Virus record (IMG/VR): IMGVR_UViG_2663763339_000002
Span: 1 to 9,864 of that record
DNA from: a virus
Lineage: Duplodnaviria; Heunggongvirae; Uroviricota; Caudoviricetes
Length of the DNA stretch: 9,864 nucleotides
Reading direction: 5' to 3' (one strand)
A program made the position numbers and the translations under genes. Of this stretch, positions 1 through 9,864 are shown one piece after another. The notes under the pieces are model-generated. The model had not been told where the DNA came from, did not search any database, and was given only the letters and a program-made list of their open reading frames with translations. The first letter of the stretch is position 1. Each line of letters opens with the position of its first letter.

Positions 1-291
1 TTAACGTCGTAACCGCTCCGGCTTCTTCCAGTGGTAAGTAATTTTTTCTTTCTCCTGGTACATCTGCACGCGGCGACGGTAGGCCAGCAACTCGAGAACT
101 CTGGTTCGTATATCGCGCATATCCACGCCGTTAAGCTCGATACCGTCACGGCGCATCACCTCAGCCACCACACGCGCGTAATTTTCTGCTATCACGCTGT
201 CTGGCTGCGTGGCCTCCTGTTTGCCTGCTGCTTGGCTGGCTCCGGTAATGCGGCGAATCATTTTGAGCATTTCGGCTTCGGTCATTGTCAT
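1..291 (-). CDS. Hypothetical protein, 96 aa, translationally coupled to the upstream small-terminase gene
   Basis: ATG at 289-291 overlaps the TGA of the upstream gene (ATGA junction on the minus strand); stop TAA at 1-3. No motif recognised. Confidence 0.5.
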   Translation of the reverse strand: MTMTEAEMLKMIRRITGASQAAGKQEATQPDSVIAENYARVVAEVMRRDGIELNGVDMRDIRTRVLELLAYRRRVQMYQEKEKITYHWKKPERLRR

Positions 292-773
292 GCCTGTTTT
301 GCATCCTCATTCACTGCGTCATTTTTTACCATCCGGCTGATAATCTGATTACACAAATCATCAATAATTGACTGCACTCTGTTTACTGCCATCGGTTTAA
401 GCCCTGCATCACGTGCCAGAATACTGGGGAGTTTTGCCAGTTCCTTGCTTACGATTTTTCCCCATATAGCCATCTCTTTTCGCGCATCATCGGCGGGTAT
501 GAGTTGCGCCGTTTCCTGTTCGAACTTAAGACGCTCACGCTCAGACTGATACCAGGCTTTGCGCTCATGTGCATCCATTTCGCCTTCTGCAACCGGCGTT
601 GGTAATGCCAGAAATGCCGACACAATATCTGCCACCCGGTAGAGCTTTAACTTGTCATGTCCTCCGGCGGGCTGGATGTTTTGCAGTCTTGCCGCCGCAG
701 TCTGACGACATATTCCCGCTATCGCCGCCAGTTGGTTAATGTTCAGCATCAGATTTTTCAGTTCTCGATCCAT
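288..773 (-). CDS. Small terminase subunit, lambda Nu1-like N-terminal winged-HTH (alternatively a packaging-redirection protein of the same fold)
   Basis: Start re-picked at ATG 771-773 (MDRELKNL...), preceded by GGAGGGGG; the ORF-track start at 830 has no RBS. N-terminus LNINQLAAIAGICRQTAAARLQNIQPAGGHDKLKLY parallels Nu1 (QLADIFGASIRTIQNWQEQGMPVLRGGGKGNEVLY), recalled from memory. Confidence 0.65.
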   Translation of the reverse strand: MDRELKNLMLNINQLAAIAGICRQTAAARLQNIQPAGGHDKLKLYRVADIVSAFLALPTPVAEGEMDAHERKAWYQSERERLKFEQETAQLIPADDARKEMAIWGKIVSKELAKLPSILARDAGLKPMAVNRVQSIIDDLCNQIISRMVKNDAVNEDAKQA

Positions 774-926
774 ACCCCCTCCGGAATGTTTTAAACATGC
801 ATCTTGCGAACAACTTTCAGAAGAGGTCAAAAAATGTGCTATATGTTGAACACAAAATAAGCAAAATTAACATACCAAAAATAAAATTCGTTTAAATTCA
901 ATACATTGAAAAGATGATGATGATGA

Positions 927-1007
927 ATGAAAATGCAAAAACTAGCCTTTTTCCGCGCCGCTCCCGCCCCGTGGTAAGGCCACTACACCGGGAGGACCCG
1001 TAAAAAA
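927..1007. repeat. Copy A of a conserved 81-bp intergenic element (copy B at 3451-3532)
   Basis: Direct alignment of the two copies at a constant offset of 2524 gives 4 mismatches in 81 positions. Contains nested dyad CTCCCG...GTGG-N5-CCAC...CGGGAG. Confidence 0.85.
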
Positions 1008-1023
1008 GGCGGCTATCGCCGCC
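1002..1023 (-). terminator. Intrinsic terminator after the protease-capsid gene
   Basis: Minus-strand RNA reads GGCGGC-GAUA-GCCGCC followed by UUUUUU (plus-strand A6 at 1002-1007), 8 nt after the stop at 1031-1033. Confidence 0.6.
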
Positions 1024-1030
1024 CTTGTTG

Positions 1031-2947
1031 TCATGCTCCACTCGATTTCAGTAGTCCACGATAATCGAGGGCCGCAACACCTGCATCTATGCGCACCTTC
1101 CAGGCGACACCATCAACAGTAAAGCCCTCCTGCTCCTCGAGATATGGCGTATCAATACCATCAAGATAAGCGACCTCTATCGTGTCCATCCCTTTCGCTG
1201 CGGCTACATACCACTCCTTGTTATTGTTCTTATCAAGACGTGGCTCAACAATAACTTCAGCCATATCTTTCACCACGTTAATGATGCCTGGGTTCTGATT
1301 GATAGTGCCCTCACCATCAACCGGAAAGAGTGATGACGATGACAGAATGGCGCGATGTGCGGCAGACTCCAGCGCGGCGGGGACCAGGACAAATGCGGGG
1401 GTAATATTCAGCGAATCACCGTTAGCGTCCTCCTGGAGGCGCATTAGCTTACGGGCTTCGTTAAGTCCCTCCATGTCCATATCCTTCGCAATAAGATTTT
1501 TATGATCGGCATGGAATAGCGCCTTACCATCCGTGAATTTGCCATTGCCGGTTAACAGGAGATACACCAGATTACCTACTGTTCTGGCGGCTGCACGCCC
1601 CATCGCCATGGGGATTGTAGTTAACTGGGTCAGGTCATCGTTAATAATGGCCTGGCGGGTAACAGAAAAAATATTCCCGTATGTGGCCAGCGCAATAGGT
1701 ACGCCCTTGTCACTGGTAGTAATGTATTTATATTCCGCGCCTTCCGGTACTTTATCCAGTTTTGAAAAACCATTCAGGCCAACGCGTTTTGCCTCGTGAA
1801 AGTTTGAAAGCGATCCGCTACGCGTCCACTTCTGGAACGTTTCGCCGCTGTCCTGCCAGCCTTTCAGCACTGATTTTTCAGCACCGCCAGCCAGAATATG
1901 AGAAAAATCACTGCTGCTGTGTGTAAAAGCTGCATTAACGACCTGCGAACGATTTAAAAAACCGCCAACACTGATACCACGATCGACCAGTGACGCCTGG
2001 GCCATTTCAAAAAGGCTCATCATCGCGTAAGGATTGCCACGCTCAGGACGCTCATACCCAAGACGGGAATAAAGGCCCTGGCGAATCGCATCGCCTGTTA
2101 TGTTCCCGTTTCCGGCATAAATATGAGACGGGATATTTTTATTTGTTGGTGTGTGGTTTTTACCCATTTCGTTAAGCAGACGTTCCCGGGCCATTTCCAG
2201 CGTACAGGATGCATCTTCAAGGCACGACATTTTGATCCCGTCGTACTGGTTGCCGAACACGCTAAAAATTTCTTTAATGCCGTTAATGCGCTCCTGGTCG
2301 CCTGTAATGGTGTTTTTTGCCTGTGATTTCGGCGGGGTAATCATTCCCTTAATGGTTTCCGGCATATGTAAAAAATCTCCTGTGCGTTTCGATTCAATTC
2401 GCGCCATTACTCTGACAGATGGCAACAATTCATCAGCAAAACCGTGCTTAAGGCATTCTTTCCCGTCCATCCAGGTTTCATCTTCCAGCATGGCGGCAAT
2501 TTCCTGTGCTGATTTGCCCGTTTTTCTGGCATAAGCAGGGATTAACACGGTTTCCACTTTATCCAGCAAATCAGCATAATCACGCATATCGCCAGCATTT
2601 CCGCCAGAGATACCCCACGGCTTATGGATCATCATCATGGCGTTCTCCGGCATAACAACGCGATCGCCTGCCATTGCGACGACCGAAGCCATTGAAGCCG
2701 CCACGCCATCGATATAAACCGTAATGTCTGCCGGATGATTCCGTAGCAGGTTATAGATGGCGATGCCTTCAAACACGTCACCGCCAGGCGAATGGATCCG
2801 TAGGTCGATATGTGAAACATCGCCAAGGGCTTTCAGATCTTCCGAGAACTGCTTCGCGGTAATACCGAAGCCGCCAATTTCTTCATAGATGGATATCTCC
2901 ACCGTTCCACGCACATCCGCCGCCTTAATGGAAAACCATGTTTTCAT
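1031..2947 (-). CDS. Prohead maturation protease (ClpP/S49-like) fused to a phage major capsid protein, 638 aa
   Basis: N-terminal about 180 aa carry ClpP-like motifs (IDLRIHSPGG, GVAASMASVVAMAGD, MMMIHKPWG). The C-terminal roughly 400 aa are assigned as major capsid protein by position and overall resemblance, not by a named motif. RBS AGGAG before ATG 2945-2947. Confidence 0.85.
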   Translation of the reverse strand: MKTWFSIKAADVRGTVEISIYEEIGGFGITAKQFSEDLKALGDVSHIDLRIHSPGGDVFEGIAIYNLLRNHPADITVYIDGVAASMASVVAMAGDRVVMPENAMMMIHKPWGISGGNAGDMRDYADLLDKVETVLIPAYARKTGKSAQEIAAMLEDETWMDGKECLKHGFADELLPSVRVMARIESKRTGDFLHMPETIKGMITPPKSQAKNTITGDQERINGIKEIFSVFGNQYDGIKMSCLEDASCTLEMARERLLNEMGKNHTPTNKNIPSHIYAGNGNITGDAIRQGLYSRLGYERPERGNPYAMMSLFEMAQASLVDRGISVGGFLNRSQVVNAAFTHSSSDFSHILAGGAEKSVLKGWQDSGETFQKWTRSGSLSNFHEAKRVGLNGFSKLDKVPEGAEYKYITTSDKGVPIALATYGNIFSVTRQAIINDDLTQLTTIPMAMGRAAARTVGNLVYLLLTGNGKFTDGKALFHADHKNLIAKDMDMEGLNEARKLMRLQEDANGDSLNITPAFVLVPAALESAAHRAILSSSSLFPVDGEGTINQNPGIINVVKDMAEVIVEPRLDKNNNKEWYVAAAKGMDTIEVAYLDGIDTPYLEEQEGFTVDGVAWKVRIDAGVAALDYRGLLKSSGA

Positions 2948-3450: not shown

Positions 3451-3532
3451 ATGAAAATACAAAAATCAGCCTTTTTCCGCGCCGCTCCCGCCCCGTGGTA
3501 AGGCCACTCCACCGGGAGGACCCGTAAAAAAA
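3451..3532. repeat. Copy B of the conserved 81-bp intergenic element
   Basis: See copy A; same orientation, abuts the terminator after ssb. Confidence 0.85.
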
Positions 3533-3548
3533 CCGGGAAAATCCCGGC
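3526..3548 (-). terminator. Intrinsic terminator after the ssb-like gene
   Basis: Minus-strand RNA reads CCGGGA-UUU-UCCCGG followed by U7 (plus-strand A7 at 3526-3532), 17 nt after the stop at 3565-3567. Confidence 0.55.
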
Positions 3549-8622: not shown

Positions 8623-9864
8623 TTACACGGCACGGATACCCCTTTTACCACTGGCTATGGTCACTCCGGTAGCTGCGGCCTCTACAAATTCCCCCCACCA
8701 GCGCATAAGCACCACGCGCTTTTCCAGGTAGTTACTTCGGTTATATGCTCGCCTTACCTCGTTTGTGTCCACGTGTGCGAGTGCGGCCTCGATTACGTCC
8801 GGCTCGAATCCTTCCTCGTTCGCTGCTGTACTGAATATGGCGCGTAATCCGTGAGACACCAGCACACCAGCGTAACCCATCCGGCGCAATGCGGCGTTAG
8901 CGGTCTGGCTGCTCATTGGCAGCATCGGGTTTTTAAGGCTGGGAAAAACGTGTTCCCTGTGTGCGCTGATTGGCTTCATGGTTTCCAGTACAGCCATAGC
9001 CTGACCGCAAAGGGGGATCACGTGGTCACGGCGCATCTTCATGCGTCCGGCTGGAATCGTCCATGTTTCGGCATCGAGATCTATTTCTTCCCAGCGTGCG
9101 GCGGCTGCTTCGGCTGGGCGTGCTACGGTCAGCAGTTGCCACTCAATCAGCAATCTGGTTTGCCGTTCTATGCTGGCGACCGATAAATCGTGCATTAGCT
9201 GCGGTAGCTGTTCCGGTCGGATGGTTGGCATGTGCTTTTTGGTGGGTGAGGGGAATGCCTTGCGGACGTTCGCGGCGGTGTTGATGTCAATCAGCCCACT
9301 GTTGGCAGCAAAATCCATCACTTCATTGATGCGTTGTAAAACGCGTTTCAGGGTTTCCAGGTTGCCGCGTGCTTTAATGGGTGTGAGTATCTCAACAAAG
9401 CGGCGAGCTGTGAGGGTATCTATTGGCGTGTTTCCGATGTACGGGAATACGTATTTTTCCAGGGATCGCCAGATATCCTTAATCGTGTTGTAAGCCAGAT
9501 TCTGGCCTTTTTTCATCTCGTACCAGTCCGAGGCAACTTTTTCGAACGTGTTGCCCTTTTTCCGACTCTCTGCTTCACGTTTCCGGCGTTCGTGGTCCTG
9601 TGGGTCAACTCCCTTCGCTATGAGTGACCTGTATTCATTCCGTCGTTCTCTGGCATCGGACAGGGAAACATCATTCAGCGATCCGAGGCTGATGATAGTC
9701 CGTTTTTTATCTGCCGGGCGGTAGTACGTAAAACGCCAGATTTTTGATCCGGAGGGTTTCACCAGAAGAAATAATCCTCCGCCATCCTGCAGGGTGTATT
9801 CCTTTTCCCCTGGTCGTGCGTTTTTGATCTCCGTAATAGTTAGTGGGGTGGTTTTTCGTGCCAT
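8623..9864 (-). CDS. int: Tyrosine site-specific integrase, P4 / CP4-57 IntA family, 413 aa
   Basis: N-terminus MARKTTPLTITEIKNARPGEKEYTLQDGGGLFLLVKPSGSKIWRFTYY is the typical arm-binding domain of P4-type integrases; catalytic-region motifs (TVARP, HGLRAIF, RAYNRSNY). ATG is the last 3 nt of the window. Confidence 0.9.
   Translation of the reverse strand: MARKTTPLTITEIKNARPGEKEYTLQDGGGLFLLVKPSGSKIWRFTYYRPADKKRTIISLGSLNDVSLSDARERRNEYRSLIAKGVDPQDHERRKREAESRKKGNTFEKVASDWYEMKKGQNLAYNTIKDIWRSLEKYVFPYIGNTPIDTLTARRFVEILTPIKARGNLETLKRVLQRINEVMDFAANSGLIDINTAANVRKAFPSPTKKHMPTIRPEQLPQLMHDLSVASIERQTRLLIEWQLLTVARPAEAAAARWEEIDLDAETWTIPAGRMKMRRDHVIPLCGQAMAVLETMKPISAHREHVFPSLKNPMLPMSSQTANAALRRMGYAGVLVSHGLRAIFSTAANEEGFEPDVIEAALAHVDTNEVRRAYNRSNYLEKRVVLMRWWGEFVEAAATGVTIASGKRGIRAV

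Follow-up and report, generated by a model that had tools for sequence, protein, structure and literature searches.

The prototype of the cos-type PICIs of Escherichia coli, EcCICFT073, carries two functional copies of cos (PMC6092414), and in this island the Rpp protein redirects the packaging of the helper phage (PMC6739421). PICIs of Gram-negative hosts with capsid homologues, two cos sites, Rpp, and sometimes a terS homologue have already been described (PMC6092414, PMC6739421, PMC10111431), and the cos-type PICIs of E. coli have been understood through one mechanism, the binding of Rpp to a lambda-type small terminase subunit (TerS). The SaPIs are satellites without a large terminase subunit (TerL), in which a homologue of the helper TerS directs the island's own DNA to the helper motor (summarised in PMC6092414). 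Here, we compare with these systems a window of 9,864 nt (the whole stretch of DNA that was analysed, to which positions refer unless another record is named), in which the rppA slot of EcCICFT073 is filled by a gene for a 161-aa protein, followed by a 96-aa open reading frame (ORF).

A PICI of the EcCICFT073 Family at the tRNA-Pro Site

Bases 1–1030 of the window are 100% identical to the chromosome of E. coli RM8082, a strain from cattle faeces, in whose annotation the island is bordered by tRNA-Pro/yejM on one side and by a yejO pseudogene on the other. The 3' end of tRNA-Pro carries a 14-nt att core, GGCACGAGAG(G/T)ATT, which is found again about 0.6 kb to the left of the window. The presence of the core at both places sets the length of the element at about 10.7 kb and makes the 96-aa gene its last gene, after which come about 0.6 kb of noncoding island DNA, attR, and yejO. 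The window is nearly all of this PICI, which belongs to the EcCICFT073 family. All island genes are on the minus strand of the window, and their annotated order is integrase, AlpA-like HTH protein, Icd-like genes, DUF4222, RepA-type helicase, SSB, a fusion of ClpP protease and major capsid protein (MCP), a DUF1441 protein, and the 96-aa ORF.

As in EcCICFT073-type PICIs of about 10–15 kb, an integrase, an alpA-like regulator, and pri/rep are arranged in one direction and flanked by att. The likeness to EcCICFT073 itself extends over int, alpA, the icd-like genes, DUF4222, pri/rep, ssb, a capsid homologue, cos (two copies also in the RM8082 island), a wHTH packaging protein, and a last gene of 93–96 aa. 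The two islands differ in the genes that face the helper and in their cos sites. In particular, the packaging protein of EcCICFT073 is RppA (c1503) and the capsid genes are gpE and gpD, whereas here we found a near-full-length paralogue of a DUF1441-type TerS and the ClpP/MCP fusion; cosN is here GGGCGGGAGCGG; the second cos of EcCICFT073 is found in inverted orientation between rppA and the last gene, whereas here it is direct and lies upstream of the capsid gene; and the last gene is here translationally coupled to the TerS gene. The fusion gene (1031–2947, minus strand) is the second helper-matching gene of the module, and its product is 57% identical to the fusion protein of phage Ayreon. 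Relative to Ayreon, 28 residues are missing from the linker at the protease–capsid junction, which might bear on capsid size.

The annotated genes between attL and attR include no TerL, portal, HNH, or head–tail connector gene. An earlier note on this DNA had asked whether the 161-aa protein and the small ORF behind it were an autonomous terminase or a device for hijacking helper packaging, and the search for a large terminase to the left of the window and throughout the island, which found none, decides for the latter. Nor is the full capsid and packaging set of a cf-PICI present, a protease/capsid fusion and TerS alone being encoded. That the 161-aa protein serves as the autonomous terminase of a capsid-forming PICI needing only the tails of a helper, as the island's own fusion gene and TerS homologue might suggest, is refuted by this gene content, and we give that reading next to no credence.

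Several further observations concern the ends of the island. The integrase gene (8623–9864) is frameshifted according to PGAP in RM8082 and is an uninterrupted 413-aa ORF in the window; the 413-aa protein aligns end to end with the 412-aa integrase of another island (23% identity). A 26-bp direct repeat, CGTATAGCT(A/T)AACGTGTAGCTAAAAA, is found just within both island ends (15463–15488 and 25927–25952 of locus L001), and its copies are possibly arm-type sites of the integrase. The 485 bp to the left of base 1 of the window (L001 15516–16000, noncoding) are 87.6% conserved with L006, an island at another att site, and directly past the stop codon of the 96-aa ORF they hold five GTGAC repeats with an exact spacing of 10 bp. 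Four such repeats are present in L006 and four, further downstream, in L010; most other islands have none.

Two cos Copies and a Phage-Like cosB

On the minus strand upstream of the 161-aa gene, a cosN-like 12-mer (GGGCGGGAGCGG, then CGCGG) lies at 958–969; the lambda left end reads GGGCGGCGACCT and then CGCGG. A cosQ-like GGGTCCT (993–999, minus strand) is placed 23 bp upstream of cosN, and lambda cosQ is GGGTCCT at the equivalent place. This position agrees with the alignment of PICI cos sites in PMC9026076. The stretch from cosN to the TerS start (786–957, minus strand) is cosB-like: it is homologous to that of mEp460-type phages and prophages and co-varies with TerS residues 1–60. From cosQ to the TerS ATG, a stretch of 240 bp, the island matches the DNA ahead of terS in phages 606R10 and Ayreon at 77–79% identity. 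A terminator-like hairpin, GGCGGCGATAGCCGCC followed by T6 (1002–1023, minus strand), sits between the stop of the capsid gene and cosQ, and a simple scan of the coding strand found no sigma-70 promoter.

A second, direct copy of the 86-nt cosQ–cosN block is located at 3451–3536 (minus strand), between ssb and the capsid gene, with 93% identity to the copy at 927–1012; its cosN is at 3482–3493 and its cosQ at 3517–3523. A phage-like cosB is absent after this copy, and only the 927–1012 copy runs into cosB. The same two copies are present in islands L006 and L018. No other evidence for a packaging role is as strong as the cos sites (958–999 and 3482–3523), which the earlier note does not mention.

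The two direct 86-nt blocks flank the capsid gene, each right after a terminator-like hairpin; were both cos copies cut, a molecule of 8.2 kb that lacks this gene could be packaged. At about 43 kb, four units of the island correspond in size to a helper genome. No helper prophage resident in RM8082 was identified; matches at two places in the RM8082 record had been considered as a sign of one and were rejected, the second place probably being the island's second cos copy.

The arrangement of cos varies among related elements. Some islands combine a lambda-type cos and a TerS of the Nu1 family with an mEp460-type cos (GGGCGGGAGC) in inverted orientation directly upstream of the 96-aa gene (L007 107–142 and 1017–1051; L008 13107–13142 and 14017–14051), so that cos sites for two types of helper are found in one island; gene callers at times run the 96-aa ORF on through this inverted cos (P0095, P0242). 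In the Ayreon record (L005), the cosQ-like block (677–710), which underlies a CDS annotated as "late gene regulator," and the post-cosN block (861 onward) are about 150 bp apart, unlike in 606R10 and the islands, where these blocks are contiguous, and the record begins 25 nt before terS, not at cosN.

A DUF1441-Family Paralogue of Phage TerS

The 161-aa gene occupies 288–773 on the minus strand (ATG 771–773, stop 288–290). The earlier note had preferred this ATG to an automatically called start at 830, and we arrived at the same start: the Shine–Dalgarno region (774–785, minus strand), as read from the sequence, has GGAGGGGG at 1–8 nt upstream of the ATG, an MD.ELK start is present in all 30 of the 30 aligned homologues, and PGAP annotates the identical protein. 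Since the TTG at 830 falls within conserved noncoding cosB DNA, the ATG at 771–773 is the right start.

The protein matches Pfam DUF1441 (PF07278) over residues 10–148 (3.5e-33, 115 bits, cut-off 35.1) and phrog_141, "terminase small subunit" (1.1e-56). It is 74% identical over residues 1–153 to the annotated TerS of mEp460, Ayreon, and phi458, and more distant TerS homologues were found in records of Stx-converting phages. The earlier note was thus right to see in a satellite a protein resembling small terminases and, in tight coupling with it, a small ORF. In phages and prophages, the order around the homologue is cos, terS, a gene for a 700-aa GpA-type TerL, gpW, a lambda-type portal, and a ClpP/capsid fusion, and in the phages and in prophages with closer alleles the TerL start overlaps the terS stop. 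As in mEp460, Ayreon, and phi458, the island gene lies directly downstream of a homologous cosQ–cosN–cosB, and the island has its N-terminal and cosB alleles in common with some E. coli prophages. The difference lies in what follows, as in the phage members of DUF1441/PHROG 141 terS is adjacent to a GpA-type TerL gene, whereas in the island, with cos present upstream, TerS is followed by the 96-aa gene.

The earlier note had assigned the N-terminus to a Nu1-type winged HTH, which holds at most at the level of the predicted fold and falls at the level of the sequence family. The AF2 model (pLDDT 77) shows a wHTH with the order strand–helix–helix–strand–strand–helix over residues 9–56, and then helices. 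Foldseek with this model returned local, nonsignificant matches only, to MerR-type wHTH domains and to 6hn7_B. At E ≤ 0.1, no Pfam match to Phage_Nu1 (PF07471) was obtained, and neither phmmer nor profile searches of the PDB gave a match, to Nu1 and Rpp included; the PDB holds at least one entry from the Rpp paper, the Rpp–TerS entry 6hn7 deposited with it. The hhalign comparison with a Nu1-family alignment was colinear over 127 columns and weak (probability 3%, E 0.015). With lambda Nu1, the protein shares a gene position immediately downstream of cosB, a predicted N-terminal winged HTH, and, in its phage homologues, a TerL of the GpA family; however, it belongs to another Pfam family, has no significant sequence relationship to Nu1, and is about 20 residues shorter. 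"Nu1-like" is thus, for the 161-aa protein, an analogy of fold and position without family membership.

Domain Mosaic of the Satellite TerS

We compared TerS and cosB (taken from +45 to the ATG) in the islands of RM8082 (tRNA-Pro), L006 (smrA/abgR), L012 (thiM/rcnR), and L018 (clpS) with those in prophage L016 and phage 606R10. Residues 1–60, the putative wHTH DNA-binding module, co-vary with cosB. Three of the islands and prophage L016 form a first class, with 87–98% identity in residues 1–60 and 86–97% in cosB (88–97% in cosB when islands are compared with L016); phage 606R10 forms a second (69–75% and 69–71%; to the islands, its cosB is 69% identical), and island L018 a third (52–60% and 54–58% to all others). 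This covariation, which is not a biochemical demonstration, indicates that the N-terminal wHTH of the 161-aa protein would read the adjacent cosB. The module and cosB are common to at least one prophage lineage, and the protein would therefore give no private specificity against that lineage.

Conservation between islands and phages is highest in residues 61–100 (76–92% identity), and residues 71–87 are nearly invariant across the aligned DUF1441 family. Residues 101–161, in contrast, sort by element type, with identities of 90–97% between islands, 98% between phages, and 48–51% between island and phage, and the island type of this satellite-specific C-terminal half was found in none of 50,697 phage records. 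The acidic C-terminal tail of every phage-type homologue, across genera, is missing in the island protein, TEAGADDEEELQQEE of the phages being replaced by KNDAVNEDAKQA in the islands. Between island and phage, dS in the C-terminal half is about 1.7–2.1 and omega about 0.2, which indicates that the split is old and that both forms are constrained. The 161-aa protein is just 2–4 residues shorter than phage TerS and keeps the family-invariant C-terminal positions P116, L119, R121, D122, V133, Q134, and D138. In SaPI TerS, the DNA-recognition part differs from that of the helper. The RM8082 island reverses this paradigm, as its predicted DNA-recognition part is common with prophages and its C-terminal half is satellite-specific. 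Like SaPI1 and SaPIbov1 with their TerS-S, it encodes a homologue of a helper TerS in a satellite without TerL, whereas the SaPIs use pac/headful packaging and the type here is cos.

Both genes are real and maintained. Among island copies, dN/dS of the 161-aa gene is about 0.2 (0.07 for the closest pair, L006/L012), and that of the 96-aa gene is 0.12–0.49, the highest value (0.49) again being that of the pair L006/L012; values mostly of about 0.1–0.3 indicate purifying selection on both. That the genes are a remnant in decay, left from the head module of a lambdoid prophage and without current function, might be suspected from the presence of just two phage head/packaging genes in the island and from the frameshift that PGAP reports in the integrase. 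However, the capsid–cos–TerS–96-aa block occurs at four att sites with different integrases and replication genes, and about 192 complete E. coli genomes contain the DUF1441 and 96-aa pair. Its gene order is fixed and unlike that of phages, the C-terminal half is a conserved satellite-only allele, and dN/dS is about 0.1–0.3 except in one 96-aa pair (0.49). We therefore regard such a remnant as very improbable.

Proposed Packaging by a Helper Large Terminase

We propose that the two genes form the 3' end of a PICI module for helper exploitation, and that the 161-aa protein is probably the satellite's cos-recognition subunit, dependent on the GpA-type TerL of a helper. As the island has no TerL or portal of its own, the protein would have to present island concatemers to a helper TerL of the GpA family, which would then cut cosN and package island DNA, the satellite-specific C-terminal half presumably handling the helper machinery. 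In the favoured form of this proposal, the 161-aa protein would engage the helper TerL directly, as SaPI TerS does, in competition with the helper TerS, and the satellite-specific half would keep the satellite and helper subunits non-equivalent. Direct use of TerL is favoured because the protein is of full length and has kept the family-invariant C-terminal positions. Several observations count against the overall proposal: the reversal of the SaPI pattern, with a DNA-binding module and cosB that a prophage lineage also has; the loss of the acidic tail; the hairpin upstream of the pair and the negative result of the simple promoter scan; the negative outcome for a resident helper in RM8082; and the frameshift that PGAP assigns to the integrase.

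Alternatively, the protein could act in the manner of Rpp. Without binding TerL itself, it would then form mixed oligomers with the helper TerS via the conserved central region, so that the C-terminus of the helper TerS would bring TerL to the island cos while helper packaging is poisoned. There is precedent for this in the Rpp proteins, which have no TerL-binding C-terminus and need the helper TerS (PMC6739421; PMC9026076). Like the 161-aa protein, Rpp is encoded in a Gram-negative cos PICI, downstream of a capsid homologue and cos, and rppA has the same gene position in the same island family. The high conservation of residues 61–100 between island and phage makes co-assembly possible, and the loss of the acidic tail that every phage-type homologue has could mean that the 161-aa protein is unable to bind TerL, which would favour this alternative. 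Against it, RppA shows no sequence similarity to the 161-aa protein (BLASTP yields no alignment), a shortening by only 2–4 residues leaves the invariant positions of the C-terminal motif in place, and a heteromer with a helper of the L016 type, which has the same DNA-binding module and cosB, would leave specificity unchanged. Rather than a small derivative of the Rpp kind, the 161-aa protein is a paralogue, of nearly full length and with 74% identity, of a genuine phage TerS. We consider Rpp-like action a serious alternative, though clearly the less likely one. Candidate helpers are suggested by the common cosB and DNA-binding-domain alleles and by the prevalence of the phage-type terS–terL junction.

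The Terminal Gene of the Island Family

The islands of this family end with the 96-aa ORF (1–291, minus strand; ATG 289–291, stop 1–3). Its ATG and the stop of the TerS gene overlap in the sequence ATGA, and it would be translated by coupling to that stop; a tight junction of this kind is found in three further islands of the DUF1441 type. A 94-aa version, starting at an in-frame ATG (283–285), is the one annotated by PGAP and in most database entries. The earlier note had found no recognisable function for this ORF, and our searches agree, as they gave no Pfam, NCBIfam, or PADLOC match and no significant PDB sequence match, and the protein falls in PHROG 1561, whose function is unknown. The AF2 model, of low confidence, consists of three helices, and a fold search with it returned no significant match. 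The C-terminal Y.WKKPERLRR is invariant in a seven-sequence alignment of the family; the L012 copy reads WRKPEHLRR. Derivation from the N-terminus of TerL, as a decoy, was rejected, there being no BLASTP match to the Ayreon TerL, and so was a phage origin, there being no tblastn match in 50,697 phage records.

The family is narrow (36 representatives at 50% clustering), and a scan of species-representative genomes returned one locus only, in Shigella flexneri. In E. coli, the gene is present in 1,458–1,612 of 5,426 complete genomes (about 27%), with up to six copies per genome, and the DUF1441 and 96-aa pair in about 192. The protein is 74% identical to the product of the last gene of EcCICFT073, which comes immediately after rppA. 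In O157:H7 and in other islands, the gene is preceded by that of a Nu1-family "terminase small subunit" of 180 aa. A homologue with 47% identity is again the last gene of a PICI-like island, where the gene before it encodes a 175-aa protein with an N-terminal match to TerS PHROG 57. By this distribution, the ORF is not a dedicated partner of the 161-aa protein: four unrelated TerS-like families precede the gene (Rpp, Nu1-type, DUF1441-type, and a fourth wHTH protein), and across the family it is the last gene behind each of them. Covariation of its alleles with TerS type was looked for and rejected, the two C-terminal allele types being distributed independently of TerS type. It is the conserved terminal gene of every EcCICFT073-type island that we examined.

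Two candidate DNA features near the gene did not prove general. The GTGAC repeats were rejected as a general binding site of the 96-aa protein, since most islands lack them, and an array of TAAC...TTGAT motifs was rejected as a general feature because it is not universal. In L020 (7760–8000), a more distant island type, the 175-aa TerS-like gene is separated from the 96-aa homologue by a spacer with five copies of AAAGTGTCAA, which may be a packaging or operator site.

Published experiments on the prototype bear on the role of the protein. When the post-ori genes of EcCICFT073 were expressed alone, only c1503 (rppA) blocked lambda (PMC6739421), and EcCICFT073 with c1504–c1507 replaced by cat still transferred at about 1e6–1e7 TFU/ml (PMC10460865). 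Judging from gene order, this replacement would take out the 93-aa last gene, and the gene thus appears to be dispensable for transfer of the prototype. Together with the family context, these data argue that the 96-aa protein has no partnership specific to TerS, that packaging can probably proceed without it, and that it is not among the core packaging subunits. Its role would be independent of TerS type, and it may be an accessory factor whose target is either a component that all helpers have or the end of the island itself. A more specific reading, which we consider quite doubtful, sees a two-part device in the 96-aa protein and the satellite-only C-terminal half of TerS, the 96-aa protein being a common adaptor or modulator with the invariant basic tail WKKPERLRR. 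If so, it would couple unrelated cos- or pac-recognition proteins (Rpp, Nu1-type, DUF1441-type, and phrog_57-like) to a packaging component of the helper, such as TerL or portal, which would explain its fixed position behind every TerS-like gene.

Implications for Satellite–Helper Relationships

Literature searches on DUF1441 and on the helper terminases of PICIs and Stx phages found no description of the DUF1441/ClpP-capsid version of the module, of a satellite-specific C-terminal half of TerS, or of a universal terminal gene. The satellite-only C-terminal half is a new observation. The same PICI chassis has exchanged a whole helper-interface cassette, consisting of the capsid gene, cos, and the packaging protein, and has thereby been fitted to another large group of helpers, a second one, formed by the lambdoid prophages with DUF1441/GpA terminases. 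About 1,350 of 5,426 complete E. coli genomes, or about a quarter, contain the phage-type junction of the terS 3' end and the terL 5' end with an identity of at least 95%. The combination of a helper-like DNA-binding module with a satellite-only C-terminal half provides a handle on which part of a cos-type TerS contacts DNA and which part the motor. The 96-aa gene, present in about 27% of complete E. coli genomes, is a worthwhile target by itself, and the TerS mosaic predicts which prophages would be able to mobilise given islands.
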